Assembly: GCA_020697715.1 (NCBI GenBank)
Contig: JAEHCO010000001.1
Coordinates: 416,001-480,000 of the forward strand
Source of the DNA: Methanobacteriota archaeon
GTDB lineage: Archaea > Thermoplasmatota > Thermoplasmata > SG8-5 > JAGLSY01
Length of the DNA: 64,000 bases
Direction of reading: 5' to 3'
Both the position numbers and the translations under genes were made by a program. The notes below the pieces were generated by a model, which did no database searches, was not told the origin of the DNA, and was given only the letters and a program-made list of their open reading frames with translations. Positions 15,469 to 52,591 of this stretch are shown here, piece by piece (within the stretch, counting starts at the first letter, position 1; each line of letters starts with the position of its first letter).

Positions 15469-16002
15469 ATGACAGAAGAGAAGGCTAGGCAGACCCGTGG
15501 AGGCGTGGTAAAAGGTTATGCCAAGTACATCAAGAAGAAATGGGGAACCGATGGTGTTTTGGCATGCCAGAGAGATATTGGAGAGCTGGGATTCGAGGTC
15601 AAAGAGGATGCCTGGTACCCTGAAGAAGTCAATGTCAAGATACTCCAATGGATCGCTGACAATTATGGATTAGAGTATGTGGAGAAGGCCGCGGCCTCCA
15701 CCATATCCGAGAGAGGTGTCGTAGCCTATGCGGCCAAGCTGGCGGGCATCAAGAAGGTTTTGGAGCGAGGGGTCGAGGACTATTACCGCAATTTCAATTA
15801 TGGGAAGATCGACATCGATATCAGTGACAATCAAGCCATGGTCACCTTGACAGATTCAACATCCAATGAGGTGGATTGTGTTTCCTGGAAAGGAGCTCTG
15901 AAAGGAGTGTACAAGCTCGTCAATAAGACTGGGGACGTGCAGGAGATAGAGTGTTGCCATAAAGGTAAGGGTGCGTGCAAGTTTCTTATGACGTGGGAAT
16001 AA
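15469..16002 (+). CDS. H-NOX/V4R-like hypothetical protein
   Basis: KGYAKYIKKKWG...WYPEE at the N-terminus and a C-terminal V4R-like EIECCHKGKGACKFLMTW. Confidence 0.6.
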   Translation: MTEEKARQTRGGVVKGYAKYIKKKWGTDGVLACQRDIGELGFEVKEDAWYPEEVNVKILQWIADNYGLEYVEKAAASTISERGVVAYAAKLAGIKKVLERGVEDYYRNFNYGKIDIDISDNQAMVTLTDSTSNEVDCVSWKGALKGVYKLVNKTGDVQEIECCHKGKGACKFLMTWE

Positions 16003-29251: not shown

Positions 29252-29371
29252 CCGGACTTAGCTTAGACTGGCTAGAGCGGCTGACTGTAGTTAAGTACCC
29301 CGGAAATGCTAAGCGCATTTCCGGTATCAGCCGATATCAGCAGATCCCCGGTTCAAATCCGGGAGTCCGGA
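29252..29371 (+). tRNA. tRNA-Tyr(GTA) with a 45-nt intron at canonical position 37/38 (29291-29335)
   Basis: CCGGACT/AGTCCGG acceptor stem (C1-G72), GCTGA-CTGTAG|A-TCAGC anticodon arm, CCCGG-TTCAAAT-CCGGG T-arm. The intron folds as CCGGAAATGC/GCATTTCCGG. Confidence 0.93.
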
Positions 29372-31355: not shown

Positions 31356-31574
31356 CTATGCACAATACGTAGCACCGAAGGATATAAATTCAATTTTCTA
31401 TTACCTAATTGTATAGGGATGCACTTGTGCGATCTCTATTGAAATTTGAATGCGAGAATGAAATGATTGCATTCAGAACTTCAAAAGATTTGAAGCAAAA
31501 TAATGTGCAAAGCAAGTCCACACATTAAAAAAAATCTCGAACAAAGTGAGAGATTCAGAATAGGAGGTTCCCAT

Positions 31575-34500: not shown

Positions 34501-35882
34501 TGGAAGATGCCAAGTACTGGTATGAGAAGGCTTTGTCCATGGGGGATGATAAGAATGTACTTATCGATCTTGGCCAGTTGCTTACCAAAATGGGCGACCA
34601 TGAAAATGCTGCTCAACTTCTCGATCGAGCTACCAATATGGACCCTGAGGACAAAGAGGCGTGGAACAGTAGGGCATTGGCCTTCGAGAAACTGAAGAAA
34701 TATGATGAGGCTTTGAAATCATATGATAGGGCGATCGGCCTGGATGCGGATGACAAATTCTCATGGAACAGCAAAGGTCTTGTTCTTCTTGAAATGGCTC
34801 GCTTTCCAGAGGCTGTCAGATGCTTCCAGAGAGCGATAGAGATAGACAGGGAATTCGCACCCGCGCTGGATGGCCTGAGAATATCCGAAGAAAAGGCAGC
34901 GTCAATGGAAGTGGAAGGGCATGCGAGATCAGTTCTCAAACTGGAATATGATAGGAACAAAGCGGTATCCAGAGAGGATGCTTTCAAGGATGCCAATATC
35001 CCATACAATTTCATCGACGATGTATTCAAATTCCTATCAGATAGGGATGATATTCCATTATCCTCAATGTCTGAGAACGATAAGGAAGATATGGAAAGAT
35101 CTTCCTTCGACGTCCTAACAATGTGTCTTGGGGGCGATGCCTTCAATCTCAAGTCCAAACTGAGACTATGCGATATCTCGGTCAAGTTCCCACAATGGCC
35201 TCTTTGGAAAGCGAAGAAAGTGCTTTCCTACATAGACGCGGTCGATAGATTGACCTTCAGCCCCAAGACCACGGACCCGGAGATGGACAATCTGATGAGA
35301 CGGGCACTGGATCTTCCCGCAGAGCGACGCACGATCTTGGGTCTTGTCGAATCCCTTAGGATCGGAGTACACAAGGCCAAGGAGCTTCAAGCGGTTCTGG
35401 CCACCCTAAGAAGAGAAGGGTACACGGCGCCGACCATCGAGGTCGGTTCCCTTGTAAGCGACGATCACTTTGGAGGTGGAAAGCCAAAGACCGAGGTAAG
35501 GGAACCAAAATTACCTGTCCCCGCGCCAATATCACAACTCCAGGAAGCACCCGTGAATGTGGCGGATCAACCTACGCCACATGCGACTCCCGCCCAGCCA
35601 GCACAAGCACAGCAACCTGGCCAGGTGGTAAGTGGCATGGGTGGAAAGTTCTGCCAAACACATGGACATATGGCTGTCATGAAGCACGATTGCGGCGCTT
35701 ATCTTTGCCATAATTGTGTTAGTGGTGGATCAAAATGCCCGATATGTCATAGGCCACTTTACGGATCCAAGGAAGAGCCCCAGCAGGAAGCTCCCGCTCC
35801 AGCACCCGCACCTCTGCCAGAACCAACTCTCGAGCCTACGAGGACGGACGACGATGTGGCCAGGGATTTCGGACAGCTGTGA
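31575..35882 (+). CDS. Large TPR-repeat protein with a C-terminal B-box/RING-like zinc finger
   Basis: Many 34-aa W..KG..L..L..Y.EA...YD.AL.I.P repeats over ~1100 aa, a Pro/Gln linker, then CQTH...HDC...CHNC...CPIC. GGAGG precedes MGILD. Confidence 0.9.
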   Translation: MGILDSMNKEKRIYRKAAKLLEQGKGFDKQHQSAKALEHYQKAKQLLDENKEAISELRREYSSLYDNIGFALVESNRVEDGIRCIERSLKLNPGNLKAIGHKGIILFRKESYAKALEQFDTVLNMDKDNKAIWSHRGNTLVKLGREQDAIEAYNKVLELDPNDLTHYDKLLGIMPRDLDLMSRKGIALNDLRRFDEAIGVFDQALEIDPKQGLIWVNRGLAMSSMEKHEEAISSYQRALDINGGDGFAWEQKGHSLYRLEQFKEATDSYSQALKIFPDNVKVWIWKGMALHKNDEEDAAADAYDMALTLEPENLVALINKKQALKAKDRHEDIIETANRILALSPKDLDTIKDKAKSQFSLGHHDKALMSLDLALDISPKEIGLLEDKKDILKHLEKHDMVVTTCDQILHLDHRNTEAMFDKSSALYALENYELALRPINSLLSKVPDHLPGLKRKREILSKLYKHKDIIKVSDDILKLDPDEGPTLMAKAIAFYNLENYEDSIKAFDEYIQRDDTSADAWLLKGRSYAFIHDHAKAVESFDKALEITGGQKNIHEAKGRSLIRLKRTEDAISEFDKGLALDPEDADLWYSKGLALESKEAYEEAVGCYDKAIRSRPTDKNIWYSKGLALMWLGHYQDAIGSLDKAIEINPVERFPYIKKAEALLKLDNVDEAIRSLDKVLEMNHMDLDTHIRKKEALKILGDDENIIDSCSRIIKLDSKNILAMLDKALAEYRLGKYEQSLRSLDRAQGLEPDNIEILIARKDTLLKMEDFATVVSVSEHILQLDPTLNEIWHELGNSLLKMGRAIDALEKYDRAIKIDPNIPDIWSSKGDVLYHLKKFRESLEAYDKALEIQPSNGSLLNKKGKTLLKMERFDDSIRAFDDALMAQPGSIEFLNNRAKSLIKVERFDEALESLTHALNSDPSSQLTLRTRGLTYLEMKRYDDALRDINKAMEIGGEDMRTIAAKASIYEIMEQLEDAKYWYEKALSMGDDKNVLIDLGQLLTKMGDHENAAQLLDRATNMDPEDKEAWNSRALAFEKLKKYDEALKSYDRAIGLDADDKFSWNSKGLVLLEMARFPEAVRCFQRAIEIDREFAPALDGLRISEEKAASMEVEGHARSVLKLEYDRNKAVSREDAFKDANIPYNFIDDVFKFLSDRDDIPLSSMSENDKEDMERSSFDVLTMCLGGDAFNLKSKLRLCDISVKFPQWPLWKAKKVLSYIDAVDRLTFSPKTTDPEMDNLMRRALDLPAERRTILGLVESLRIGVHKAKELQAVLATLRREGYTAPTIEVGSLVSDDHFGGGKPKTEVREPKLPVPAPISQLQEAPVNVADQPTPHATPAQPAQAQQPGQVVSGMGGKFCQTHGHMAVMKHDCGAYLCHNCVSGGSKCPICHRPLYGSKEEPQQEAPAPAPAPLPEPTLEPTRTDDDVARDFGQL

Positions 35883-40767: not shown

Positions 40768-40888
40768 TGATATAATGCTTATCCCTTCTTAATGAAGATA
40801 AAATGGGGCCAGACCTTGATGCCTCTACCTCTTTTGATATGAAAAATGAATAGAAACATTCATTACTGCCGGTAACCATCCAGTGCCA

Positions 40889-41500
40889 ATGAAGAACCTC
40901 GACGAGATAGCCGAGAAAATAGAAGCCGATATGGATGAGAAGGACGAGGTAAGAGAAGTAGCTCTTAAATCATCCAGAAGTGTTATCAGATTATGTAGTT
41001 CCGCTATAAGGATGATCCATAAAGATGCGGATAAGGCAACGGAATACATCGATGAGGCCAAGGAAGAGCTTCACAGATTGAGAGGGATAACCAATGATTT
41101 TCCAGCTCTTTTCCACTCTGGCTTTGTCGAGACCGCGATGCAGGAATTCGTCGAGGCCAAGGTCCTAAACGCCATAATCCATAATGAAGACATCCCGGAT
41201 CCAGATAGTCTGGGAGTGACCAGTGAAGGATATCTTCTTGGTATGGGGGATGTCATCGGAGAGCTAAGGCGCAGAGCTGTGGATAATTTACGACATGGCA
41301 ATATGGAAATATCCTCCGATTGCCTGGATATGATGGAAGAGCTATACGAGTTCTTGATGAGATTCCATTATCCTAGTAGCATGGTGGCCATAAAAAGGAA
41401 ACAGGATATAGCCCGTGGTGTGATCGAAAAGACCCGCGGGGAAGTGGCTGTTTCCATGAGAGCTCATTCACTGGAGAGGAAGATATCGGAATCCAAATAG
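40889..41500 (+). CDS. Translin/TRAX family protein
   Basis: RE.ALKSSR, QEFVEA, YLLGMGDVIGELRR and KRKQDIAR. Confidence 0.88.
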   Translation: MKNLDEIAEKIEADMDEKDEVREVALKSSRSVIRLCSSAIRMIHKDADKATEYIDEAKEELHRLRGITNDFPALFHSGFVETAMQEFVEAKVLNAIIHNEDIPDPDSLGVTSEGYLLGMGDVIGELRRRAVDNLRHGNMEISSDCLDMMEELYEFLMRFHYPSSMVAIKRKQDIARGVIEKTRGEVAVSMRAHSLERKISESK

Positions 41501-41507
41501 GTGTAGC

Positions 41508-42584
41508 ATGGTAGAACAAAAATGCATGATAGTTCATAATCAGAATCACATAGTGCATAGATCGGAGACAACAAGTCCCGAGAACCCGGCCAGAGTATTG
41601 AGGATATTGAGCTTCCTCGATGGTAGATTGAAACTCTTCAAGTCCGGTGAGTTTCAATTGCGAACTGATTTTCCAGATGCGACGGATGAGCAGATACTCA
41701 GGGTCCATGATGAAGAATATTTCAATTTCATAAAGAGATATTGCGAGAATGGAGGGGGCTTTCTCGGAGATAGCACATATTTCGCTCCGTATAGTTTCAA
41801 AGCCGCTAAGAGCGCGGCAGGCGGGGCTATCAAAGCTTCCGATGTCGTGATAGACGGCGAAGTGGATACATCCTTGGCCTTGATCCGGCCACCTGGCCAT
41901 CATGCAAGCAGTGATAAATTCGGTGGCTACTGCATATTCAACAATGCGGCTATCGCAGTACGGAATCTACAGAGTGCGGGCAAGGCGAAGAAGATAATGA
42001 TCCTGGATTTCGACGCCCATGCCGGTAATGGCACAATGCGAGTGTTCTATGACGACCCCAATGTGCTGACCCTTTCCGTACACAGGGATCCTCAGGATTT
42101 CTATCCTCATGATGGCTTCCTTCATCAGATAGGCCGTGGGGATGGTAGAGGATACAATGTGAACATGGAGATGCCTGAAGGAAGTGGCGATGATGATTAT
42201 CTTATGGTTTTCAATCAAATAATCAAACCCATTCACGACTCCTTCTCACCCGATTTCCTGATAACGTCAGTTGGCTTTGACGCCCATTACAGTGATCTAC
42301 AATCCAATATGCAACTCACATCTCATGGCTATTTCGATCTGATAAGAATGACCAAAAAATTACGAAAGGGAAAGCTCCCAGTCATTTTAGAGGGTGGCTA
42401 TACCTCGGAGAATGCTTCTCTCGCGCATACCATTCTTTGCGCTCTTTCAGATAAAACTCCACCTTATGAGGATGATGTCGACAGTCTTAGCAGCTCTATC
42501 ACCAGGACGAGAAAGTCCAGAAGCATACTGGAAGATAATATAAAAGAGCTCAAGATCCTTTTACATGATTATCACACCATCTGA
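41508..42584 (+). CDS. Histone deacetylase family protein (second paralogue)
   Basis: PENPAR, RPPGHHA, GYCIFNN, DFDAHAGNGT, GFDAH and LEGGY. Confidence 0.92.
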   Translation: MVEQKCMIVHNQNHIVHRSETTSPENPARVLRILSFLDGRLKLFKSGEFQLRTDFPDATDEQILRVHDEEYFNFIKRYCENGGGFLGDSTYFAPYSFKAAKSAAGGAIKASDVVIDGEVDTSLALIRPPGHHASSDKFGGYCIFNNAAIAVRNLQSAGKAKKIMILDFDAHAGNGTMRVFYDDPNVLTLSVHRDPQDFYPHDGFLHQIGRGDGRGYNVNMEMPEGSGDDDYLMVFNQIIKPIHDSFSPDFLITSVGFDAHYSDLQSNMQLTSHGYFDLIRMTKKLRKGKLPVILEGGYTSENASLAHTILCALSDKTPPYEDDVDSLSSSITRTRKSRSILEDNIKELKILLHDYHTI

Positions 42585-42786
42585 TGTGACAGTTGTATAT
42601 ACAGGCGTATTTACATATATACATATTTTAATAAATTATATTACAATAAGATAGATAATAGATATCATATATTATGTATAATCATATAATTGTATAATTT
42701 TGTATATCTTGATCTTCTTGATCTAAAAATGCAAATTCGACAAAACATAGTAAGGCATATTAATATTCACTTGCATATCCCAAAAG

Positions 42787-43089
42787 ATGCGGGTGATGAA
42801 GAAGAAGATTTGGATCCATAAGAACGAGGTGATAGAGAGCCTCGTCATAGCGGAAGGCTCCAAGATCAAATTTTATTCACACACTTACCTTGTGAGAGAG
42901 CGCTCTCGAGGATGGAGGCCCTATGTGAAGTGGGATAATTGGGAGGGGCAACCACATGTGGATAAATTCGATGCGAATGAAACCCTGATCGAACAAAAGC
43001 CTTGCAATGAGAAAGGCCTGGAAGAGGTGATCAAGCTTGTCAAGATCTTCAGAAGGAACTTGATAACCATGGACCTTTCCCAGCTATAG
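42787..43089 (+). CDS. Putative toxin-like protein (DUF6516/TumE-like)
   Basis: YVKWDNWEGQPHVDKF resembles the RYDN.H..PH motif. Lies directly upstream of an HTH gene. Confidence 0.5.
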   Translation: MRVMKKKIWIHKNEVIESLVIAEGSKIKFYSHTYLVRERSRGWRPYVKWDNWEGQPHVDKFDANETLIEQKPCNEKGLEEVIKLVKIFRRNLITMDLSQL

Positions 43090-43104
43090 TGAAGGAATCA
43101 TCAT

Positions 43105-43536
43105 ATGTACGTGAACATCAAGAAGATCAAGGATCCCGAAATAGTGATCGAGGAATTCCAGGATCAGTATGGTACGATAAACTCCCTATCTCAAAGGGTG
43201 TCGATATCCAAATGCACCACGAAGAACGAGATGGAAGACCTGATGGTGTGGAAGTACCTCAAATCAGGGGCTGTGTTCGAGGAAGAGATCGTCCTTCACA
43301 ATTCCGATATATTCGACGTCCTCACCCCGAAAAGGATGGAATTGGTGGATTATTTGACAAAGAACAAGGCGTCCTCTATACGGAAACTCTCTGAAGCCGT
43401 GCATCGTAATTACAAGAACACTTACGATGATCTCCTCGCCCTTGAGAAGATGGGCCTTGTGGAATTCAAACGCTCGGGGAAGAGCAGGATCCCGATATCT
43501 TTCGTCATCCGTGTGGAGACTGTTTTCGAACATTGA
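43105..43536 (+). CDS. HVO_A0114/COG4190-like wHTH regulator (putative antitoxin)
   Basis: VLTPKRMELV..L, SIRKLSEAVHRNYKNTYDDL..LE..GLVEF and G.SRIP. Confidence 0.75.
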   Translation: MYVNIKKIKDPEIVIEEFQDQYGTINSLSQRVSISKCTTKNEMEDLMVWKYLKSGAVFEEEIVLHNSDIFDVLTPKRMELVDYLTKNKASSIRKLSEAVHRNYKNTYDDLLALEKMGLVEFKRSGKSRIPISFVIRVETVFEH

Positions 43537-43754
43537 TGTTACATCGATGTTAGATATGTTCATTTCATTTACTTCTTATACCATAATACACTAATTATTT
43601 ATACTGGCTAAGCTCATTCACTTCTCACACCATAATAAATTCCATACGAAATATATATATGGGGGAATATCATTAACTATAATATCGAACCAATGGATAA
43701 ATCGCACTTAGTTTGACTAAAAAAGAGATATAAAATTACCAAGAGGATGAAAGA

Positions 43755-44276
43755 ATGAAGGCACAGAAATACGAAGACGTGGAATTCATCATTGATCAAA
43801 AAACAGATAATTTCAAAGCAAACCTTATCTGGAAAAAGGGAGGTCTCTACCTCTCTCTCTCGGGTTTGTTCTTGACCGATGGAACCACGTGGTACGAATT
43901 GCCAGTCAAGGATCTTGATAATATTTCCATCATAAGGGAAGAACCTCTGAAGTTGAAATTCAAAATCCCATCTTTCGATGTCACCATCTCGGGCGATCAC
44001 GCTGAGAGACTTCTCGCTCTGAGGCATTTCCTTCTGCCTTACATATCTGGCAGAATTCATGGTAGTGAGATGAAAGCCCTTCTGAAACTATGGGCCATCG
44101 GAGTGCGTGAACCCACCATTCTTAAGAAATTACTTGGTGTTGATGAAGAAAAGGTATTGGAACTTATAGCAAAAGCAAGGAAAGACAATATACTACATCA
44201 GAACGGTGATATTGGACCCAATGGGAACAATATGCTTACGGATGATGAAAGGGAGTTTCTAGGCCTGGAGGACTGA
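43755..44276 (+). CDS. Hypothetical protein, PH-like beta domain plus HTH-like C-terminus
   Basis: GLYLSLSGLFL...YELPVKDL..I pattern followed by a helical LLGVDEEKV segment. First gene of the operon. Confidence 0.6.
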   Translation: MKAQKYEDVEFIIDQKTDNFKANLIWKKGGLYLSLSGLFLTDGTTWYELPVKDLDNISIIREEPLKLKFKIPSFDVTISGDHAERLLALRHFLLPYISGRIHGSEMKALLKLWAIGVREPTILKKLLGVDEEKVLELIAKARKDNILHQNGDIGPNGNNMLTDDEREFLGLED

Positions 44277-44277
44277 A

Positions 44278-45165
44278 ATGGAAGATGCTAATGATTTCGG
44301 GAGCTTCGCCGAGGCTATCAACACATTGGGAACCCTGAATAAATTGGAATCCGCCATAACGAGCGCTATCAACTCATCCAAAGTTCCTCCAAAGGAGATC
44401 AGGAAATTTATGAAATGCTCTTCCGTGGAAGAGGCCAGCAACACACCTTTATTCCAGTTCATGGAGATACTCTTCAAAAAAATAGGATTGGGAACCCTCA
44501 AACTTTCCCAGAATGATATTTTCAATTACGTGTTCACAGTACCGGATTCCACAGTAAGTCGCCTTTACTCGAATGTGAAGAATAAGAAGGTGTGTTACAC
44601 CCTGTCTGAAGCTCTTCAACAATTCTTTGAAAAGGATCTCGGGATCCCTGGTAATGTTGAGGAGATAAAATGCGTCAATCATGGTAGCGATGTCTGTGAA
44701 TTCTCGGTCACCATGCAGCCATTGGCGGTCTACCATCACGTGCTCGACACTGATGATCGGGACATAATAGGACATCTGATCGAGTCCCAGAACACTCGAT
44801 CTCTTGCAGACGATATAGGTCTGCATGAGGAAGAACTGAAGTTCAGGATAGAATCATTGAGAAGGTATCACATATTGAATGATGAGAACGAAGTGACCGA
44901 GATAGGCGAGACCTATTTCAAATACGGCAGAAAATCCACAGACATTGAAGAGGACTTCCCGCCGCCATGGAAAGATATGGCGGAGATAAGCATGGCCATA
45001 TCCGCATCCACATCTTTCGCCGAGGCTTTCCTGGAGACGAACAGGAAAGAGCCAGTGGTGGAAGATGTGAAGGATGATGCCATAGTGAACCTCACCGAGG
45101 AGGCTGAAAAGAGTACCAGCTTTGCAGAATTACTATCAAAATCAATCAAGAAAGAGGAAAACTAG
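44278..45165 (+). CDS. V4R-domain + wHTH protein
   Basis: GLG, KVC, EEIKCVNHGSDVCEF (V4R) and DRDIIGHL...LADDIGL...LRRYHIL....VTEIGE (wHTH). Confidence 0.75.
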   Translation: MEDANDFGSFAEAINTLGTLNKLESAITSAINSSKVPPKEIRKFMKCSSVEEASNTPLFQFMEILFKKIGLGTLKLSQNDIFNYVFTVPDSTVSRLYSNVKNKKVCYTLSEALQQFFEKDLGIPGNVEEIKCVNHGSDVCEFSVTMQPLAVYHHVLDTDDRDIIGHLIESQNTRSLADDIGLHEEELKFRIESLRRYHILNDENEVTEIGETYFKYGRKSTDIEEDFPPPWKDMAEISMAISASTSFAEAFLETNRKEPVVEDVKDDAIVNLTEEAEKSTSFAELLSKSIKKEEN

Positions 45166-45176
45166 GAGGGTTGAGA

Positions 45177-46055
45177 ATGAGCGAAAGAATAAAGACAGGA
45201 ATATTTGGGCTTGACCAGCTGATGGAGGGCGGTATGAGAGACAATACCGCTGTCGTCATAGTCGGTTCAAGCGGTACTGGAAAAACGACTTTTGCTATCC
45301 AGTTCTTGATGCACGGCATTGAGAATGGGGAGCAGGGTCTTTATGTGACGATGGAGGAATCTCCAGAGCAGATAATGAAGGAAGCTGAAATGATGGGTTG
45401 GAACATGAAAGAGCACTATGAAAAGTCTCTTTTCTTCATCCATCTGAAAGGTCAGAACTTCAAGAAGATGATAGAGGAAAAATTACCTCAGCTGGTCAAG
45501 GCCAGAAGTGATTATGACATCAGAACAAGAGTTGTCATAGATCCAATGACCCCGGTTATCTGGGCGACAGAGGATAAGCTTCTGCAAAGGGAATTGATAG
45601 GTAAACTCTTCTACACCTTGAAAGAGCTTGGTGTGGTCATGGCCACGGTGGAGGAGCATTCCAGCCCCGGAGAGATGATCGGCGAGGATGTTCTACTGCC
45701 AGTATATCTTTCCGATGGTGCGATCAATCTGGAATATTATCCTATCGGTGGAGCTTTCAACAGGACCTTGAAGATAGTTAAAATGAGAGGAACCCACCAT
45801 GGGGAAGGTGTATATCCATACATTTTCGCCAGGGGCGCGGGTGCTATTGTCAGATCATCTCCGACCGAAAGCACAAGGGCTGACGACGGTATGAGCTATG
45901 ACGAGGTATTCGACGAGGCTATAAAAACAGCCGAATTCATAAAAGCTCCAGCATATGTGATGGAGAAATTGAAGACGATGAAAGCCAACTGGACATATGA
46001 CTACTCTCCTGAAGAGATATTGCAGGTGGTATTCGACTCATATGACCTGAAATAG
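45177..46055 (+). CDS. Single-domain KaiC/RAD55-like ATPase
   Basis: RIKTGIFGLD, GSSGTGKT, YVTMEES, RVVID, SDG.I.L and KMRG, plus a ~65-aa C-terminal extension. Confidence 0.93.
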   Translation: MSERIKTGIFGLDQLMEGGMRDNTAVVIVGSSGTGKTTFAIQFLMHGIENGEQGLYVTMEESPEQIMKEAEMMGWNMKEHYEKSLFFIHLKGQNFKKMIEEKLPQLVKARSDYDIRTRVVIDPMTPVIWATEDKLLQRELIGKLFYTLKELGVVMATVEEHSSPGEMIGEDVLLPVYLSDGAINLEYYPIGGAFNRTLKIVKMRGTHHGEGVYPYIFARGAGAIVRSSPTESTRADDGMSYDEVFDEAIKTAEFIKAPAYVMEKLKTMKANWTYDYSPEEILQVVFDSYDLK

Positions 46056-46079
46056 ATCCAATAAAATCAAGGTGATCAT

Positions 46080-46871
46080 ATGGTTGACCAAAAGAATATC
46101 GATAAGAGGATGGAAGCCAAGAACGTGGTACAGCTGAAGCACATGCTGGTCATGGAGCTTAACCAGGTCAAGGAAGAGAACAATATCGATATAGTCATGT
46201 TCATGGGAGTTGATGGAAGAGTATTCTCATCCATAATCCCACCGATCTTGGATGCACCTCAATTCAAGCTTCTCAACCTTGTAAAATCAAATATGGTTCA
46301 TATATGCCGTCAATTAGATGCGGAGAATATGAAATCCAGTATTCAGGAATACAGCTTTGGAACAGTCATAATAACAGGTGTGGGAGATAATGCATTTCTG
46401 GCATCTTTATTCGTGAACCCGCCAGCCAGTGATGAATTGGGCAAGGTCACGAGCAATCTCGTCAGAGGTAGCAGGGTGATGAACCATCTCTTCCAGTTAA
46501 AACCAATCTCGGATGAATATATGGAAGGCTATGACCAAGATGTGATGGACGAGCTCACAGGCCTTACGAGACGTCTGTTCGTGGAGAAATTTGATGAGAC
46601 CAGGGGATACAAGCGAAATATGGAGATCCTCGAATATCTCAAAAAGAAGATCGGAAGTGTGGTGGGTATAGGTGCCGTTGATGAAGTAATAACCCTGACA
46701 ATGAATGAACTTGGTGCCAGAGCGGCTTATATGAAAAATCAGCAATGGGTGACCTTTACCGAGATGGCTATAAACAACCACATTCGAAAATCTGCAGGAG
46801 ATATCGTGGCAGATGAATGCTTGAAAACCTGGATAGAGGAAGTTGAAAGAAAATTGAAGTCCTTCGTTTGA
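46080..46871 (+). CDS. Roadblock/LC7-like domain protein with a helical C-terminal domain
   Basis: IDIVMFMGVDGRVFSS...SIQEYSFGTVIITGVGDNAFLASL matches the roadblock/MglB beta pattern. Confidence 0.7.
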   Translation: MVDQKNIDKRMEAKNVVQLKHMLVMELNQVKEENNIDIVMFMGVDGRVFSSIIPPILDAPQFKLLNLVKSNMVHICRQLDAENMKSSIQEYSFGTVIITGVGDNAFLASLFVNPPASDELGKVTSNLVRGSRVMNHLFQLKPISDEYMEGYDQDVMDELTGLTRRLFVEKFDETRGYKRNMEILEYLKKKIGSVVGIGAVDEVITLTMNELGARAAYMKNQQWVTFTEMAINNHIRKSAGDIVADECLKTWIEEVERKLKSFV

Positions 46872-46883
46872 TAAGGTGTAGGG

Positions 46884-49643
46884 ATGGCCGAAAAAACCAA
46901 AGGAAAGGGAAAGAAGAAGTCAAAGGGTCCAAAGGAACAACCCTCCGAGACCAAGACATCGACCCAGTCCTCGACTAAGAAATCTAAACCTGCCAAGAAG
47001 ACAGCCAAATACGAATGTGGTTTTTGCGGTAAACTTGTCAACAATGCTCATAATCTAAAGGTACATGAACATCATTGTAAATCAAAAATAGAAGAGCGGG
47101 AAAAGAAAGACAATAACAGGGAGATCGAATCCGCGGTAAGAAAGTTAAAGGATGAATTCGAGGATCAAAGGGATCTATTTCAGAAAGAGGCCACGGATAG
47201 AGAGGACCAGCTTAGGCAGGAACTGGAAGAATTAAAGGATATTTTAAGACTGGAGATCAGACGCACACACCATGATAGTCCTCAAGGCCACAAGGCGACA
47301 TCACCAGAACTTCAGGATGAAGAGATCCCTGATGTCACTGCCCCTGTCGCTCCTGATAATATTATTCCAGAAAAGCCTGAATCAATAAGTGAGATAGTGG
47401 AATCCAGTGCTGAAGAGAAGGTTATCGAACCGGCTCCCATAGTTCAGGTAGTAACACCTCCTATGGCGCAAGCAGAGGCTCCCCCTCCTCAACCCCAACC
47501 CATGCCTGAAGAACCTATTGTGCCAGTGCAGGAGCTTGCAAAAACCACTCCCCTACCAGAAACCGTCCCCCCGTCCCCCCAAATTCCTTCTGAAAATGTA
47601 GCTCCGATGGACCCCGATAAAGAAGATATGGGAGTATCCAGACAAATGGTATTGGATCTGATAAAGGAGGAGATCGGAACTATGAGTTCGACATCTACTT
47701 CAGCAACCCCAATATCGGATAATTTAGATGATAGGCTGGGGGACATGGAGAATAAGATACGATCACTATCTTCGAGCGTTGATCAGATGGCGCGTGATAT
47801 AAAAACAGCAGATAGTAATACATCCATGGCTCTAGATGATAAACTATCCGAACTCGATCCAAAAAGATTTGATAGGGAGATAGAAAAAATATCCGACAGG
47901 GTCTTCGATATAATGGACGAGATCGGATATGGTGAGAGTTTGAATGTCGCCAAGATCCCACCGAACATACTGGAGATCGTCTACATGGCGACACTGGCAG
48001 ATATTGTGAAAGAGATGAACAAAGCTCTTGGAGATCAGGAAGCGGAGAACAAGATCAATAAGGCTTTGGAAGATGTCAGGCTCAGGACCAGTGGTAGCGA
48101 GCTCTTCAGGTTCGATGGAAGAAGAGTGGTGACCGAGAACCTTGCCAGATCAATAGAGACCAATATGATATCGGCCAAGCAGATCCAGACCACTTACACG
48201 GAGCTTCTGAAGAAACTTCTGGAGACAATTCCAGGATACAAAGCAAAGAATTTCCAAGCGATGATCAAGATAAAAAGTCAGGAATATGCTGTGGACAAGG
48301 CCACTGTTCTGAGTGAAAGTGTATCCAAGCTTGAAAGCAATATGAACAATATGGGTCAGATGATAGCAGCCTTTTCTTCCCAGCTAAGTGCGAGGGCACT
48401 TCAATTGGAAGGAGATATCAAGCAAAATAAGGAAGATATAGATGGTAAAAGCGATAAGACTGACATCGAAAATCTCCTGTCCAATATGATGGAGCGGGCT
48501 GAAGCAGATAGGTCCATGAGATCAAATCTAGAAGCATTGAAGGAAGAGCTCGATGCTATCAAGGAACTATCTAGGGATCTATCACAAAAACTTGAAGATT
48601 ATATTAGCTCCGGCTCAAAAAAGCCGGTCAAAAAACCTAAGGGTGAAAAAGCTCAAGATGAGGCAATAAAAGAACCCGAGATCGAAGAGAAGACCTCGGA
48701 AGAACGAACTCCTGAATCTGAAGCCCCAGAGCTTGAAAAGCCAGCTCCTGAAAAAGAGGCCAAGATGGACAAGAAGAAGACAACCAGGGATGAAATTATT
48801 GAAGCCGTGTCCGAGGGTTCTACCAGTAAAACAGCAATAAAGAAAAAATTGAAAATAACTGACAGTATTTTGAATAAAGAATTGGCGGCTCTTGTCAAGG
48901 AAAAGAAGATCCTGAAGAAAGGAACGAAGAACAGGCCTTCCTATGCCATGCCAGAGCTATCTGAGGATGTCAAGAAAGCTCCAAAAGAAATAACAAAGGA
49001 TAAATCTGAAAAACCCGCATCAAAGAAGAAAGTGGCGGGTGCTAAAGAAGAGCCAAGCAAGAAAGATGAAGAAAAACCAGCGGATAAAAAGAAATCATCT
49101 GCCAAGAAAAAAGAGAAGCTGGAGCAGAAGGAAGAAAGATCTCCAGTAAGATCAAATGATGGAGCAAGTGATAAATCGAAAAAGAAGGAAGAAGCTGGAT
49201 CCAAGGCTGTGGCAAAGAAGAAGGATAAAGAAAAGCCAGTGGACGATGCAGAGATCGACGCAACTCCTACCAAACCAGCTGAGAAACCTAAAGCCAAAGC
49301 CAAAGCCGCTGTGGAAACAACAGAGGCTACGGAGGAGAAAGATACCCCATCACCCGAAAAAGTGGAGGAGGATCTCCCCCCATCCAAGACCCTGGAGGAC
49401 CTGGATGACGCGGAGAAGAAGGTCCTTAGTGCGATCTCCAGCTCCGGGATCACATTGCCCAATCTTAAAAAAGCTGTTGCCAAGGATGTGAAATACACGG
49501 TCGTTCTGAGAGCTTTACGTGTATTATTGGATTCTGAATTCGTGGAAGCCGTTACCCAAGGTCGGCATACCGTATATCAAAAGATCAATGTCAAAAAAAT
49601 GGATAAAACTGGAAAGAAGAAAGATAAACAGGAGGTGAAGTAA
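46884..49643 (+). CDS. 919-aa multidomain protein: C2H2 Zn finger, coiled coils, Pro-rich and Lys/Glu-rich linkers, two wHTH-like domains
   Basis: YECGFCGK.....HNLKVHEHHC; heptad regions; IIEAVSEG...LNKELAALVKEKKI.KKG....SY; EKKVLSAI...LRALRVLLDSEFVE....GRHTVY. Confidence 0.8.
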   Translation: MAEKTKGKGKKKSKGPKEQPSETKTSTQSSTKKSKPAKKTAKYECGFCGKLVNNAHNLKVHEHHCKSKIEEREKKDNNREIESAVRKLKDEFEDQRDLFQKEATDREDQLRQELEELKDILRLEIRRTHHDSPQGHKATSPELQDEEIPDVTAPVAPDNIIPEKPESISEIVESSAEEKVIEPAPIVQVVTPPMAQAEAPPPQPQPMPEEPIVPVQELAKTTPLPETVPPSPQIPSENVAPMDPDKEDMGVSRQMVLDLIKEEIGTMSSTSTSATPISDNLDDRLGDMENKIRSLSSSVDQMARDIKTADSNTSMALDDKLSELDPKRFDREIEKISDRVFDIMDEIGYGESLNVAKIPPNILEIVYMATLADIVKEMNKALGDQEAENKINKALEDVRLRTSGSELFRFDGRRVVTENLARSIETNMISAKQIQTTYTELLKKLLETIPGYKAKNFQAMIKIKSQEYAVDKATVLSESVSKLESNMNNMGQMIAAFSSQLSARALQLEGDIKQNKEDIDGKSDKTDIENLLSNMMERAEADRSMRSNLEALKEELDAIKELSRDLSQKLEDYISSGSKKPVKKPKGEKAQDEAIKEPEIEEKTSEERTPESEAPELEKPAPEKEAKMDKKKTTRDEIIEAVSEGSTSKTAIKKKLKITDSILNKELAALVKEKKILKKGTKNRPSYAMPELSEDVKKAPKEITKDKSEKPASKKKVAGAKEEPSKKDEEKPADKKKSSAKKKEKLEQKEERSPVRSNDGASDKSKKKEEAGSKAVAKKKDKEKPVDDAEIDATPTKPAEKPKAKAKAAVETTEATEEKDTPSPEKVEEDLPPSKTLEDLDDAEKKVLSAISSSGITLPNLKKAVAKDVKYTVVLRALRVLLDSEFVEAVTQGRHTVYQKINVKKMDKTGKKKDKQEVK

Positions 49644-49644
49644 T

Positions 49645-50271
49645 TTGTTAGATGTAGCTCTCGTATCTTTAATTCAAGATATGAGCGAAAAAGCTGGTGT
49701 CGAAGGCACCATACAATATTGGGCTAGAGTAGGTGAAAGCTTGGCCAAAAGAATGGGCAAGGAAGCGTACATGGGATGGCCGTCCTTTAATGTGGCTTTG
49801 AGAGAAGGAAGAACAGCATTCTCCATTGAAGGATCTGTCACAGCATTGACCGATCTCGCCATCACGGATGTAGATGGTGATGTCGTTGGATACATATATG
49901 CTCTTGAGACATGTGTTTTCAACCCCACTACCGTGCGTATAAGGTACAGCGTGGGAGAACTGCCAAGGGCGGACAGAGCTGTTGCTGATGAATATAACAA
50001 TAGTGTGAGGGATACAGCAGTCTGTAATTTCTGTGTGATCCATCAGAGGTTCAGGGAAGAGGTTTCCAAGAACATCGCTATTGCGGATCAGCAATTGGAC
50101 TGTATCCAGCTGGCGGCAAGAGGTTTCACAGGAGAGACCAAGATCGCGGATGACTCCATGAAGAAGATTGGCATCAATCCAGAATACGTTCGCAGTCTTT
50201 TGAGGAACTATGCTTGCGTGTATGCCATAATGATGAAAGGCGCTCGTCTGAAAGGCGAGGAGGAAGATTAG
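49645..50271 (+). CDS. Cys/His-containing V4R/MetOD1-like hypothetical protein (paralogue A)
   Basis: GGAGGTGA SD before a TTG start; CVF and CNFCVIHQRFR; aligns by eye with the next ORF. Confidence 0.7.
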   Translation: MLDVALVSLIQDMSEKAGVEGTIQYWARVGESLAKRMGKEAYMGWPSFNVALREGRTAFSIEGSVTALTDLAITDVDGDVVGYIYALETCVFNPTTVRIRYSVGELPRADRAVADEYNNSVRDTAVCNFCVIHQRFREEVSKNIAIADQQLDCIQLAARGFTGETKIADDSMKKIGINPEYVRSLLRNYACVYAIMMKGARLKGEEED

Positions 50272-50284
50272 GAGGTGTTCGAAG

Positions 50285-50917
50285 ATGTCAAAACTAAAAA
50301 ATGATACTCGAGAGAGAAGAGCATTGATAGATGACAATCCACTGGTCGATGTAGCTGCCTGCCTGTTCCTGGAGGACATAGCGGATAAGCAGGGTGCTAG
50401 CGGTATGAACAATTACCTTGTCAGTCTCGCGACATCATTGGCAAAAAGTATGCCAGTGGAAGAGTACGATACCTGGGATGATTTCCTCGAGGCTTTGGTA
50501 AGTGGTGAATCCATCATATCTGCCTTTGAGGAAGTTGAGACCATCACCCCTAATTGCGCGGTAACCAAGATGTGTCCCTTCACACGAGGATGGCAGGAAT
50601 ACACCAAAAGGATCGGCGAGTTCTCCAAGATACACACGGATGTTGCCGAGTACTATAATTCCGTATACAAACCATGTGTCATCAATTCGATGTGTATCAT
50701 ACACCAGACATTCCGAAATGCAGCTGCAGAAAGGATATTCATTAAAGGCAATCCACTGCGATGCGCCAATATCGCGGCTGTATGGGAAGATGGAACGAGG
50801 AAGATCGCTCCTGATGAATGGTTACCCATACTCCTTGAAAAGGCACAGATAACCAGTACGGATCTCACGATGATACTGCGAAACAATGCAGATGTTTGGG
50901 TGATCTACACAGATTGA
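50285..50917 (+). CDS. Cys/His-containing V4R/MetOD1-like hypothetical protein (paralogue B)
   Basis: GGAGGTG SD; CPF and MCIIHQTFR; shares DVA, SLAK.M..E.Y..W..F..AL..G and LRN with paralogue A. Confidence 0.7.
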   Translation: MSKLKNDTRERRALIDDNPLVDVAACLFLEDIADKQGASGMNNYLVSLATSLAKSMPVEEYDTWDDFLEALVSGESIISAFEEVETITPNCAVTKMCPFTRGWQEYTKRIGEFSKIHTDVAEYYNSVYKPCVINSMCIIHQTFRNAAAERIFIKGNPLRCANIAAVWEDGTRKIAPDEWLPILLEKAQITSTDLTMILRNNADVWVIYTD

Positions 50918-50976
50918 GATAGATCGACCTGTGAAGTCTATCAATTCACACCTGCAATCCAAGTTTGACATTATGT

Positions 50977-51606
50977 ATGTCAAACTTGGCCATATTTAAT
51001 GGAAGTGAGAGCCTGCAATTACTCGGAAGAAGCGCAGATATAGAATACTTGAAAATAGAGGATGCTTCAGAGATAGATAGGTTTCACATTGTGGGTGTGG
51101 AGGAAGGAGACCTTGCAGGAGGAGGCTTTGAATTCTTCCGGGGTCTGGGGATCATCGGTTACAGAAATACTTTCAAGATGTGGCTGAGGAAGTTTCCTAG
51201 GCCGATATTCATCGCGGCAGTTAAAAATAGAAATATAGTGTCCTGGGTCTTCATTGAGGAATGGGATGACACTGCCAGGGATGGATCATCAGTATGGGTT
51301 CTCAGGGCTATCGAGACCATCGTCCCACTAAGAAAGAATAAAGTGGGCCACAGGATGTTGATGCTGGGTGCCAAACACAGCGTGGGATATCTTATCACGA
51401 AGCCTCTCACACCCGAAGCTTCGAGATTTTTCAATAGAGCGGGATTCATGGGAGTTACGGAATTTAGAAAGGTTCCCATAGATCTTTCTCGCAATCCTGG
51501 TTATGTCATCCTGCCACCTTTCCAGAAGAACAAATTGATAGATGGCATTGAGAGATATTTCTCACCTCATAAGATGGGTGAGGATGAGGTAAAAGATATT
51601 TTGTAA
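50977..51606 (+). CDS. GNAT-like acetyltransferase
   Basis: LRAIET...LRKNKVGHRML (motif A-like) and PEASRFF.RAGF (motif B). Confidence 0.7.
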   Translation: MSNLAIFNGSESLQLLGRSADIEYLKIEDASEIDRFHIVGVEEGDLAGGGFEFFRGLGIIGYRNTFKMWLRKFPRPIFIAAVKNRNIVSWVFIEEWDDTARDGSSVWVLRAIETIVPLRKNKVGHRMLMLGAKHSVGYLITKPLTPEASRFFNRAGFMGVTEFRKVPIDLSRNPGYVILPPFQKNKLIDGIERYFSPHKMGEDEVKDIL

Positions 51607-51658
51607 ATATATACCACAAATACTAAAACGATGATAAATAAATTGATAATTACTTGAT

Positions 51659-52591
51659 TCATTTTTTCAGCCAATATGGACTGGCCAGGTCTTCATGGGC
51701 ACTATTGGCGGCTATAGCTCCTTCCGAGCAGGCTGTTATGATCTGTCTGAAGCCACCACTGACATCGCCAGCTGCATAGAACAATGGTAAATTCGTTCTC
51801 TGTTCTTTATCTGTGATGATATACCCCTCATCATCTAATTCGATCCCCAGAACTTTTATAAGATCTGTCTGAGGGATATCGCCGATCGAAATGAATGCTC
51901 CATTGAAATCCACATCCGACATTTCCGAGGTCTTCACATTTTTAATTCTCAATCCTTCCAGCATATTCTCGCCAAGGAACTCTTCGACCACGGAATCATA
52001 CATCACGTGTATGCCCATCTCCGCTATGGTCTCTTTATGTCTATCCTCGGCTCTGAGCTCATCCCTTCTGTGGATGATGGTGACATCTATGCCCAATTTC
52101 TTGAGGAATATGGCCTCGGTGGCCGCATTATTGCCTCCACCCACTATGGCCACTTTCTTGCCCTTAAAGAAGAAACCATCGCAGGTGGCGCAATATGAAA
52201 CACCTTTGCCCGTCAATCGTCCTTCGCCAGGCGCCCCAAGTCTTCTGTGCACGGAGCCAGTTACATAGATCACTGATCTAAATTGATATTCATCCTTGGA
52301 TGTCTTGACAATGAAATGATCATCTTTTTTGGAAATAGCTTCCACTTTTTCACTATCCTTGATCTCCACGTATTTCTTGGCCTGGGCACGCATCTTGTCC
52401 ATAAGATCCATGCCGGAGATCTCTTCAAAGCCAGGATAGTTCTCTATCCACGGGGCTTGGTTTGCCTGGCCGCCGTATATTCCCTTGTCAAATACAACTG
52501 CCTTCAATCCACTGCGGATGGCGTAAATGCCGGCGGTGAGACCACCTGGTCCACCTCCGATTATAGCTATGTCCTGCATGCTCATGTTCAT
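51659..52591 (-). CDS. trxB: Thioredoxin reductase
   Basis: IIGGGPGG, IENYPG, SYCATCDG, VGGGN, HRRD and AAGD. Confidence 0.95.
   Translation of the reverse strand: MNMSMQDIAIIGGGPGGLTAGIYAIRSGLKAVVFDKGIYGGQANQAPWIENYPGFEEISGMDLMDKMRAQAKKYVEIKDSEKVEAISKKDDHFIVKTSKDEYQFRSVIYVTGSVHRRLGAPGEGRLTGKGVSYCATCDGFFFKGKKVAIVGGGNNAATEAIFLKKLGIDVTIIHRRDELRAEDRHKETIAEMGIHVMYDSVVEEFLGENMLEGLRIKNVKTSEMSDVDFNGAFISIGDIPQTDLIKVLGIELDDEGYIITDKEQRTNLPLFYAAGDVSGGFRQIITACSEGAIAANSAHEDLASPYWLKK

Follow-up and report, generated by a model that had tools for sequence, protein, structure and literature searches.

Does the run of eight genes at positions 43755 to 51606 of this 64,000-nt stretch of DNA (the window), from an uncultured Thermoplasmatota archaeon, encode an undescribed regulatory system, and where does that system begin and end? 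An earlier note had read the genes as a self-contained switch around a KaiC-like ATPase, an interpretation that our analysis supports in part.

Gene organization and conservation

41508..42584, + strand: HDAC-family deacetylase, 358 aa (PF00850, 4.4e-86), a frequent accessory neighbour
42787..43089, + strand: up1, 100 aa, TumE/DUF7718-like (homologue profile matches)
43105..43536, + strand: up2, 143 aa, winged-helix protein of the HVO_A0114 family (PF25212, 2.9e-19)
43537..43754, no strand: spacer before g1, 218 nt, AT-rich
43755..44276, + strand: g1, 173 aa, uncharacterised N-domain and C-terminal winged helix-turn-helix (wHTH; homologue profile matches)
44278..45165, + strand: g2, 295 aa, V4R domain, wHTH and three 'SFAE' motifs (PF02830)
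45171..46055, + strand: g3, 294 aa, single-domain KaiC-like ATPase (PF06745, 6.4e-48)
46080..46871, + strand: g4, 263 aa, roadblock/MglB fold (residues ~12-143) and helical C-terminal domain (predicted structure)
46884..49643, + strand: g5, 919 aa, Zn-ribbon-like N-terminus, low-complexity/coiled regions, central domain and C-terminal wHTH
49645..50271, + strand: g6, 208 aa, Cys/His protein of V4R/Bet3 fold (predicted structure)
50285..50917, + strand: g7, 210 aa, g6 paralogue (29% identity, E 2e-21)
50965..51606, + strand: g8, ~195-213 aa, distant GNAT-like protein (profile matches)

Genes g1 to g8 are co-oriented and tightly packed, as the earlier note had described, with successive intergenic gaps of 1, 5, 24, 12, 1, 13 and 47 nt. 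Its observation of Shine-Dalgarno motifs upstream of most genes also stands: seven of the eight have GGAGG, AGGTG or GAGGA no more than 25 nt from the start, and g8 has no such motif in that interval. None of the 14 terminator-like matches between positions 42400 and 52000 falls on the + strand, which is weak evidence since the scan was of bacterial type and the host is archaeal. The unit is larger than the eight genes flagged, comprising ~11 genes with the HDAC-family gene, up1 and up2; the cluster is thus not self-contained, as two upstream genes and often the deacetylase share its neighbourhood. Judging from its sequence and size, the 218-nt spacer 5' of g1 is likely a putative internal promoter region; the spacer 5' of up1 measures 202 nt.

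We compared 100 loci, 20 from relatives and 80 from other GTDB species genomes, and found gene order and strand identical in 20/20 and 80/80, with no case of rearranged g1-g8. This arrangement is far beyond chance and, because synteny is strict across the phylum, the homologues are not scattered. All of g1-g8 is present in 16 of the 20 relatives' loci, and the remaining four end at a contig boundary (one of them, L040, is also without a visible g7); among the 80 other-species loci, g2-g8 is complete in 54 and g1-g8 in 41, the rest being mostly on short contigs. Neither L040 nor L059 yielded g7, and three loci (L115, L117 and L121) carry g7 without a following g8. The cluster occupies a single place per genome searched, and the identity of g4 drops with kinship, from 94-78% in the same genus to 64-49% in the same order and 53-42% in the same class, which fits vertical descent.

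The upstream genes are less constant companions. Of the 38 loci whose upstream flank reaches 1400 nt or more, 26 have the HDAC-family gene 20-930 nt before up1 (within 255 nt in 25/26) and 12 lack it. In six loci (L112, L113, L118 and L122-L124) it lies immediately 3' of g8; one genome, G185 (L122), has the whole HDAC-up1-up2 trio there rather than 5' of g1, with its internal order kept. Syntenic up1 occurs in 14/20 relatives' and 43/80 other-species loci, and up2 in 15/20 and 44/80; the two are inverted in L107-L109 and missing from seven loci having at least 3 kb of upstream flank. The window copy of up1 matches no Pfam or NCBIfam family, and its homologues (n=12) match DUF7718 (9/12, best 6.4e-8) and TumE (PF20126, 6/12, best 1.4e-5).

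The ATPase and its candidate regulators

The single-domain KaiC-like ATPase that the earlier note had recognized in g3 is borne out by its Pfam match, and its catalytic motifs are intact, with no variation at Walker A, the E62/E63 pair, D124 or K204-T208. Column identity averages 82%, and a C-terminal extension of ~65 aa is conserved. The protein is closer to the CI (96 bits) than to the CII domain (65 bits) of clock KaiC. Alignment to clock KaiC finds the canonical phosphorylation sites missing, and an autokinase, clock-like core is therefore not indicated.

The predicted structure of g4 (pLDDT 83) confirms the proposed roadblock-like fold, with matches to MglB by Foldseek (1j3w, E 4.8e-5) and VIA-align (3t1r, Z 12.6, rmsd 3.2, 120 aligned residues); g4 matches no Pfam family, PF03259 included. 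The earlier note had remarked on the lack of a small GTPase, which is correct for the operon, and all 100 loci are free of GTPase genes within or beside the cluster. The genome (G000) nonetheless has 10 Ras-family GTPase genes, and only two canonical Robl_LC7 genes, which would allow the roadblock protein to work in trans. Elsewhere in this genome, a further roadblock gene and a GvpD-like KaiC-family gene overlap, and a different KaiC gene sits before two Ras-like GTPase genes.

The most conserved gene of the cluster is g6, at 79-99% identity across the class and 70-80% in the phylum sample. Its model (pLDDT 89, pTM 0.86) matches BcsD (VIA-align Z 8.3), the DmpR sensor (6.7), Bet3 (6.5), PoxR (6.1), and the MJ1460 V4R domain and Thor-TRAPPC3 (both 4.9), a moderate match overall (Foldseek E ~1e-3) in a range that common arrangements reach too. 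Together with the 29% identity of g7, which adjoins g6 in 78/80 other-species loci, this fold upholds the description of the two as paralogous Cys/His V4R-like proteins. C90, C130 and H133, numbered as in g6, are common to both; at position 191 the window g7 has Asp and most orthologues have Cys. Only 108 of 1.84 billion representatives belong to the g6/g7-like family, which includes fusions to KaiC (P0197) and to Arf-like GTPase domains (P0208, P0206 and P0219), some in Asgard MAGs, so that the g6/g7 domain is physically linked to NTPases of both kinds.

Winged-helix proteins and the putative acetylation pair

Winged-helix domains occur in at least four cluster proteins (up2, g1, g2 and g5), and their binding to DNA is our inference, because winged helices can mediate protein contacts too. 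For g2, the assignment as a V4R and wHTH protein proved sound: PF02830 matches 15/15 homologues (best 2e-10; at 26.9 bits the window copy falls short of the cut-off of 31), C106, C132 and C140 of the V4R domain are invariant, and 17/18 homologues repeat the short 'SFAE' motif near residues 9, 246 and 281. The helix-turn-helix half of the PH-like plus HTH description of g1 stood, with a wHTH-PRTase_assc match in 13/15 homologues (best 4e-7) and a MarR-type match at residues 102-157 (E 0.08); the PH-like half is tentative, its N-domain giving weak leads to POB3 (E 1.9) and, by language-model likeness, to CheF-arch clusters (score 0.91). The central domain of g5 (~327-510) is kept in 20/20 relatives' loci and has no match in the PDB or the Atlas. 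Weak wHTH matches in the C-terminal region agree with that part of the zinc-finger, coiled-coil and double-wHTH architecture proposed for g5, and its homologues vary in length (514-958 aa), lysine content (4-18%) and Zn-ribbon pattern (present in 12/20).

The assignment of g8 as a GNAT finds weak, homologue-level agreement in its sequence. PF00583 matches 11/15 homologues (best 3.1e-6) and not the window copy itself, and GNAT acetyltransferases account for all six PDB profile matches at E<10 (best 0.055), among them a weak match to AcuA. In motif A of g8 a basic residue occupies the place usually taken by the first Gly of GNAT proteins. The start of g8 is uncertain, since alignments with homologues begin only around residue 13-28. 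AcuA and AcuC carry out reversible protein acetylation, with a GNAT writer and an HDAC-family eraser, and the cluster likewise links GNAT-like and HDAC-family genes, which are adjacent in several genomes. Unlike that pair, g8 is very divergent, the two genes are embedded in a KaiC operon, and neither is universal: g8 was found in 74/80 other-species loci, and since each is missing in some lineages, the acetylation arm is not obligatory.

Comparison with known systems

Archaeal KaiC-like ATPases have been termed 'signal transduction hubs' (Makarova, Galperin & Koonin 2017, mBio 8:e01959-17, via PMC5847659 and PMC4858521). As the citing papers describe such hubs, the cluster resembles them in encoding a single-domain KaiC-family ATPase with putative sensor and wHTH output partners, and an accessory helical partner in place of KaiB; it departs from them in the phosphosites absent from g3 and probably in its roadblock protein, three V4R/Bet3-fold proteins, long scaffold, GNAT/HDAC genes and TumE-like pair. 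A literature search, with the main 2017 KaiC survey outside its scope, returned no paper describing this system or this set of partners.

Roadblock/LC7 proteins regulate small GTPases in the MglA-MglB and Rag-Ragulator systems, and g4 shares the MglB fold and a position beside a P-loop NTPase gene. However, the NTPase here is a RecA-superfamily KaiC rather than a Ras-like GTPase, and g4 has an extra helical domain of ~120 aa. In the TRAPP core, Bet3-family dimers and longin-fold subunits act on Rab, and Asgard archaea have TRAPPC3/V4R proteins (PMC10933270). The adjacent g6/g7 paralogues, their Cys/His site, which resembles the Thor-TRAPPC3 Zn site, and their encoding with a roadblock-fold protein and an NTPase recall TRAPP, as do the fusions to Arf-like GTPases in Asgard MAGs; the cluster differs in its moderate fold similarity (Z 4.9-6.5 to Bet3/TRAPPC3) and GTPase-free operon, and any exchange-factor activity or membrane link would be hypothetical. 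V4R sensor domains are coupled to DNA binding or to an ATPase in MsvR and PoxR/DmpR/MopR. In g2 a V4R domain bearing three conserved Cys is paired with a wHTH and matches the MsvR V4R region at 24.9 bits, far below the MsvR cut-off of 220, and the two domains stand in the opposite order to those of MsvR. DmpR-type activators couple V4R sensing to an oligomeric ATPase, which in them is a fused AAA+ domain; the cluster encodes its KaiC-type ATPase as a protein of its own.

Alternative interpretations

Could the KaiC protein be an accessory, with g4 and the Bet3-fold g6/g7 acting mainly on Ras/Arf-like GTPases encoded elsewhere, as a GAP/GEF-type scaffold like MglB, Ragulator or TRAPP? The surplus of Ras-family over canonical Robl_LC7 genes and the Arf-like fusions are consistent with this, as is the finding that 29/29 g4-bearing relatives have at least two Ras-family matches (E<=1e-20) and 4/12 relatives without a g4 match have none, counts that are not independent because the genomes are kin. 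Yet five genomes (G004, G016, G024, G034 and G038; G004 is 83% and G016 77% complete) carry 5-12 Ras-family genes without a g4 match, and the NTPase always linked to the cluster is KaiC, among its most conserved genes, which makes such a platform rather improbable. We also consider unlikely a structural or chromosome-organizing machine in which the RecA-superfamily ATPase would drive or remodel a scaffold made of g5 and a polymer-forming g6. In its favour, g6 finds its best fold match in BcsD, a builder of octamers and filaments (a BcsH-BcsD filament entry is also listed), g5 combines a Zn-ribbon-like N-terminus with coiled regions and wHTH domains, and g6 identity of 70-99% across the phylum is unusually high for a sensor. 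However, g5 varies widely, the flanks show no link to division, segregation or envelope genes, and the BcsD score is of the same order as those of V4R sensors and Bet3.

Alternatively, two or three neighbouring modules may have stayed together by chance of descent: a toxin-antitoxin-like TumE-like/wHTH pair, a KaiC-roadblock-V4R module (g1-g5) and an acetylation module (g6-g8 with the HDAC-family gene), the last acting on a small molecule or protein as in AcuA/AcuC. The two spacers of over 200 nt, the inversion or absence of up1/up2, the movement of the HDAC-up1-up2 block as a unit and the AcuA matches of g8 point that way, but g5 and g6 are 1 nt apart here, g3-g4-g5 is split from g6-g7 in 0/100 loci, KaiC and a g6/g7-like domain are fused in nature, and the moved trio is still attached to the cluster; separate modules are accordingly distinctly unlikely. 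We judge a role in anti-virus defence, or in another type of mobile conflict, highly improbable: some defence systems use KaiC-like ATPases and up1 resembles the TumE toxins, but PADLOC models give no real match beyond generic HTH or P-loop similarities, the flanks show neither an integrase nor repeats, and the cluster keeps one place per genome with identity that follows kinship.

Proposed function

We give about an even chance to the reading that the cluster encodes an undescribed KaiC-centred regulatory complex with predicted Cys/His sensor subunits and DNA-binding and acetylation outputs. This would be a vertically inherited, co-transcribed unit of ~11 genes whose products assemble around a predicted hexameric ATPase of KaiC CI type. 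Through their Cys/His sites, g2 and a g6/g7 heterodimer, all of V4R fold, may detect a small ligand, a metal or redox state and, with the roadblock adaptor g4, may control either nucleotide turnover or KaiC ring assembly, by analogy with the action of roadblock and Bet3-family proteins on small GTPases. A multimeric partner might dock on g2 through its three conserved 'SFAE' peptides. The state of the complex could then be relayed by the putative DNA-binding proteins up2, g1, g2 and g5, and also by reversible acetylation, with g8 as writer and the HDAC-family deacetylase as eraser.

Gene row and its extent

The cluster is a real, strongly conserved, uncharacterised and KaiC-centred gene row. 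All eight + strand open reading frames that the earlier note had read as a KaiC-roadblock-V4R-GNAT signalling operon are present at exactly the coordinates proposed, although the unit itself is larger: two small upstream genes (up1 and up2) are syntenic with it and a deacetylase gene (HDAC) is linked to it.

Genes of the extended cluster (window coordinates)
41508-42584, HDAC, HDAC-family deacetylase (PF00850, 4.4e-86)
42787-43089, up1, TumE/DUF7718-like
43105-43536, up2, HVO_A0114-family wHTH (PF25212, 2.9e-19)
43755-44276, + strand, g1
44278-45165, + strand, g2, V4R and wHTH
45171-46055, + strand, g3, KaiC-like ATPase
46080-46871, + strand, g4, predicted roadblock fold
46884-49643, + strand, g5
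49645-50271, + strand, g6, paralogue of g7
50285-50917, + strand, g7, paralogue of g6
50965-51606, + strand, g8, putative GNAT, start uncertain

Intergenic gaps from g1 to g8 are 1, 5, 24, 12, 1, 13 and 47 nt in order, and Shine-Dalgarno motifs do precede most genes, with GGAGG/AGGTG/GAGGA-type sequences no more than 25 nt from the start in seven of the eight (g8 has none). None of the 14 terminator-like matches at 42400-52000 lies on the + strand, though this came from a bacterial-type pattern scan and is weak evidence in an archaeal host. Two AT-rich spacers lie ahead of up1 (42585-42786) and g1 (43537-43754). A look-up of public sequencing runs for 42700-51700 listed none, nor any RNA holder.

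The HDAC product aligns to PF00850 with 289.3 bits, residues 24-307 falling on profile positions 2-291 of 298, so that the catalytic domain is covered. Homologues of up1 match DUF7718 (9/12) or TumE (6/12), the window copy matching neither, and its partner HTH gene up2 is adjacent. Of 38 loci whose flank is long enough, 26 have HDAC upstream of up1 at a distance of 20-930 nt, within 255 nt in 25 of those 26. It directly follows g8 in five others (L112, L113, L118, L123 and L124), and in one genome assembled as a single contig (G185) the order is g1 ... g8-HDAC-up1-up2, the HDAC-up1-up2 trio having thus moved as a block while keeping its attachment to the cluster.

The convergent thioredoxin reductase and thioredoxin genes downstream were left out of the unit because their synteny is restricted to the genus (1/20 loci from relatives; 4/80 and 3/80 loci from other species genomes). 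A Translin-family gene (window 40883-41500, 1.9e-9) precedes HDAC and recurs in 5/20 and 7/80 loci. Farther upstream, a 1459-aa open reading frame (window 31503-35882) recurs in 5/20 loci, and a tRNA match at window 29252-29371 is 120 nt long where the model has 71 positions, suggesting an intron-containing tRNA gene.

Conservation and distribution

Gene order across Thermoplasmatota MAGs, the check suggested in the earlier note, proved colinear in all 20 loci from relatives and all 80 from other GTDB species genomes. Matches to g4 occur in 29/41 relatives (16/25 genera), with identity dropping with kinship. Order and strand are kept in the 20 loci around these matches, of which 16 hold all eight genes and four are cut at contig ends; L040 also lacks g7.

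A scan for g6 in one genome per GTDB species gave 91 relatives, from which 80 loci were retained. Across these, g6 is found in 80, g7 in 78, g8 in 74, g5 in 71, g3 and g4 in 67 each, g2 in 57, up2 in 44, up1 and g1 in 43 each, and HDAC in 33. Changes in order are limited to an inversion of up1/up2 (L107-L109) and the shift of the HDAC-up1-up2 block, and g8 is missing after g7 in L115, L117 and L121.

Carriers are labelled as Thermoplasmata or Thermoplasmatota MAGs (SG8-5, DHVE2, Saliniplasma and others). When the phylum was sampled evenly, 13/401 genomes and 10/162 genera had g6, adjoined by g7 every time; none was found in the largest families sampled (0/48, 0/53, 0/36, 0/26 and 0/24). Within family f16, two single-contig genomes of 1.4-1.5 Mb gave no g6 match, while G191 (200 contigs) has g6 and g7, a pattern that suggests loss in small-genome members. 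One contig with g6-g7-g8 at 83% identity (L068, JAIMBL010000099.1) sits in a MAG assigned to a Leptolyngbyaceae cyanobacterium, most probably through misbinning. Every carrier found is a metagenome-assembled genome, so heterologous work will be needed.

The KaiC-family ATPase

The g3 product (294 aa) is the single-domain KaiC-like ATPase expected, matching PF06745 at 6.4e-48 (163.6 bits versus a cut-off of 26.6). Residues G32-T40, E62/E63, D124 and K204-T208 are invariant among 15 orthologous sequences, whose mean column identity is 82%, and the invariant motifs comprise Walker A, the catalytic Glu pair, Walker B and the Arg-finger region. With one domain rather than two in tandem, g3 is not circadian KaiC proper, and its scores against the NCBIfam KaiC equivalogs (134 and 97 bits) fall below the cut-offs of 408 and 546. 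Compared with the halves of clock KaiC, it scores higher against CI (96 bits) than against CII (65 bits). The Ser/Thr pair of CII, which we take to be the KaiC phosphosites, has no Ser/Thr counterpart when aligned to g3, where a hydrophobic residue and a gap stand instead. By its sequence, therefore, g3 has the features of an ATPase more than those of an autokinase of the clock type. Assignment to ArlH/FlaH was rejected (48 bits versus an equivalog cut-off of 215), and the operon is indeed without an archaellum gene, none being found in its flanks either.

Putative sensors and adaptor

The reading of g2 as a V4R and wHTH protein held: PF02830 matches all 15 homologues (best 2e-10) and wHTH 11 of them, the window copy itself scoring 26.9 bits, just below the cut-off of 31. 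Three cysteines (C106, C132 and C140) are invariant. An SFAE peptide recurs in g2 at about residues 9, 246 and 281 in 17/18 orthologues and is absent from every other cluster protein. Elsewhere in the window, a 188-aa frame contains a sub-threshold V4R match (28.1 bits; about 15877-15987, G000:C11:431877-431987).

The proposed roadblock likeness of g4 is borne out by its predicted model (pLDDT 83), in which Foldseek and VIA-align point to a roadblock/MglB fold for residues ~12-143. Foldseek returned 39 matches at E<=0.001, headed by MglB and Asgard roadblocks; VIA-align gave Z scores of 12.6-10.5 over MglB, MglC, Roadblock3 and LAMTOR, the alignment to MglB 3t1r (Z 12.6) covering 120 residues at an rmsd of 3.2. 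The g4 sequence has no PF03259 match at E<=1, and residues 145-263 are helical in the model. Its 196 database relatives are annotated as hypothetical proteins or, by JGI, as Roadblock/LC7/MglB family. One homologue (P0037) carries a precomputed Pfam accession, PF27410.1, from outside the release used, so a Pfam family covering g4 may exist in a newer release.

The products of g6 and g7 are paralogues, as the earlier note had stated (29% identity, E 2e-21), and neither has a match in Pfam or NCBIfam. Both keep C90, C130 and H133 (g6 numbering) almost without variation. Position 191 is occupied by Cys in g6 and in the majority of g7 orthologues, the window g7 having Asp there. For the g6 model (pLDDT 89, pTM 0.86), VIA-align ranked BcsD (Z 8.3), the DmpR sensor (6.7), Bet3 (6.5), PoxR (6.1) and the TRAPP core (5.9) above H-NOX (5.1), the MJ1460 V4R and Thor-TRAPPC3 (both 4.9). 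The best 17 matches belong nearly all to one fold group, yet with Z scores of just 4.2-8.3, and Foldseek points to the same group with E 1.4e-3 at best; the predicted match to the V4R/Bet3 fold group is thus consistent but moderate. An apparent g6-g7 fusion in G110 (a 471-aa open frame) was dismissed as an overlapping open frame in GC-rich DNA.

Putative DNA-binding and acetylation proteins

The C-terminal wHTH of g1 was found in 13/15 orthologues. Signals for a PH-like N-terminal domain were confined to a POB3 match at E 1.9 and a language-model likeness of 0.91 to CheF clusters; CheF-arch had no match at E<=10 in 15 homologues. In g5, a Zn-ribbon-like pattern appears at the N-terminus of 12/20 homologues, the C-terminal region gives weak wHTH signals, and the low-complexity regions vary. 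Its central domain (~327-510) is conserved in 20/20 loci; a PDB profile search returned nothing at E<=10 for this domain, the ESM Atlas gave no usable match, and hhalign against g4 gave a probability of 0.2%. Since the Lys content of g5 homologues ranges from 4 to 18%, the idea of its Lys-rich tails as a conserved acetylation substrate is weakened. No Pfam or NCBIfam family covers the g4 C-terminal domain, the g5 central domain or g6/g7, and none was assigned to the g1 N-terminal domain.

The g8 product appears to be a distant, putative GNAT. All six of its PDB profile matches are GNATs, including AcuA, yet at E 0.055-0.28, and PF00583 matches 11/15 orthologues (best 3.1e-6), the window copy not among them. 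Its motif A reads R-x-x-[KRH]-x-[GA].

Links to GTPases and other KaiC genes

At E<=0.001 the profile of g6/g7 matched just 108 proteins among 1.84 billion representatives, four of the 108 being longer fusions with a g6/g7-like C-terminus. The N-terminal part is a KaiC domain in P0197 (JGI metagenome; 8.3e-40), an Arf-like GTPase in P0208 (1.4e-25), and an Arf-like domain with a degenerate P-loop in P0206 and P0219 (Hodarchaeales and Thorarchaeota MAGs), whose N-terminal profile matched Arf/Arl structures at E 7.7e-7. All four retain the C-[VI]-x-H-Q and C-P-F motifs and have a middle region of about 150 aa between the NTPase and g6/g7-like parts. Aligned to g4 with hhalign, the Asgard fusions gave a probability of 1.3%, and we therefore claim no roadblock domain for them. 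A metagenome scan for relatives of the fusions yielded 154 pattern matches, none confirmed.

No GTPase gene occurs in any of the 100 loci, in agreement with the earlier description of an operon without a small GTPase. The source genome (2.1 Mb) has 10 Ras-family, 2 canonical roadblock, 31 KaiC-domain and 5 DUF835 matches, the Ras-family count reaching 29 among its relatives. At least two Ras-family matches are present in 29/29 relatives with g4 and none in 4/12 relatives without a g4 match, a co-occurrence that is only suggestive because the genomes are related.

Other regions of the source genome also place such genes side by side. On the - strand of locus L126 (884-2780; G000:C28:55383-57279), a canonical Roadblock/LC7 gene of 126 aa (PF03259, 3.3e-10) and the beginning of a gene for a 523-aa GvpD-like KaiC-family ATPase overlap, a second roadblock-KaiC pairing. 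At locus L125 (1262-4932, - strand; G000:C28:7761-11431), genes for a TPR/zinc-ribbon protein, a KaiC-like ATPase of 253 aa and a pair of Ras-family GTPases stand closely packed, as a TPR-KaiC-Ras-Ras operon. Outside the window, at G000:C11:74282-76622, a 327-aa frame with V4R and DUF835 comes directly after a pair of Ras-family GTPase genes.

Interpretation and significance

The cluster belongs with KaiC-hub systems, as a variant; the observation made in the earlier note thus stands, and its interpretation stands in part. Beyond the observed gene set, gene order, ATPase motifs, folds and fusions, we infer a mechanism in which g2 and a g6/g7 dimer would act as Cys/His sensors of metal, redox state or ligand, the sensors together with the roadblock adaptor would gate a KaiC ring, and output would pass through the wHTH proteins and the GNAT/HDAC pair. 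To this reading as a whole we give an even chance.

Other explanations would place the same genes differently. The products could form a structural scaffold, which seems rather unlikely. An origin as separate neighbouring modules is unlikely, and so is a platform for GTPases encoded in trans. A role in defence is very improbable and was rejected, since PADLOC, run on 10 proteins, gave just HTH- or P-loop-level similarities and no real match.

Bet3 and roadblock are the folds that build TRAPP and Ragulator. A more speculative view, to which we assign a rather low probability, is that the cluster is an ATPase-centred counterpart of the small-GTPase regulator platforms of eukaryotes and Asgard archaea. 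A g6/g7 Bet3-fold heterodimer and g4 would then control the KaiC ring through its nucleotide state or its assembly, possibly also acting on the organism's many Ras-like GTPases, and a dedicated acetyl writer/eraser pair would record the state on chromatin or target proteins. If so, the partnership of Bet3 folds with NTPases would predate the Asgard-eukaryote line and extend beyond it. Asgard roadblock and TRAPPC3 proteins are covered in PMC10933270.

A full-text literature search, which took in passages of PMC10933270, PMC5847659, PMC2253512, PMC4858521, PMC4915359 and PMC6393860, found no description of this gene set. Earlier listings of the families may exist in the survey of KaiC-like ATPases published in mBio in 2017 or in supplementary and arCOG tables, which lay beyond this search.

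To our knowledge, no putative signalling proteins have expanded further in archaea than the KaiC-like ATPases, and we know of a partner set or output for almost none of these. This cluster offers a complete and strongly conserved candidate pathway, with sensor folds, an adaptor, an ATPase, DNA-binding proteins and an acetylation pair, that could be reconstituted using purified parts. It also connects KaiC as well as Arf-like GTPases with a Bet3/V4R-like domain, a link that bears on the origin of eukaryote-type NTPase regulators.
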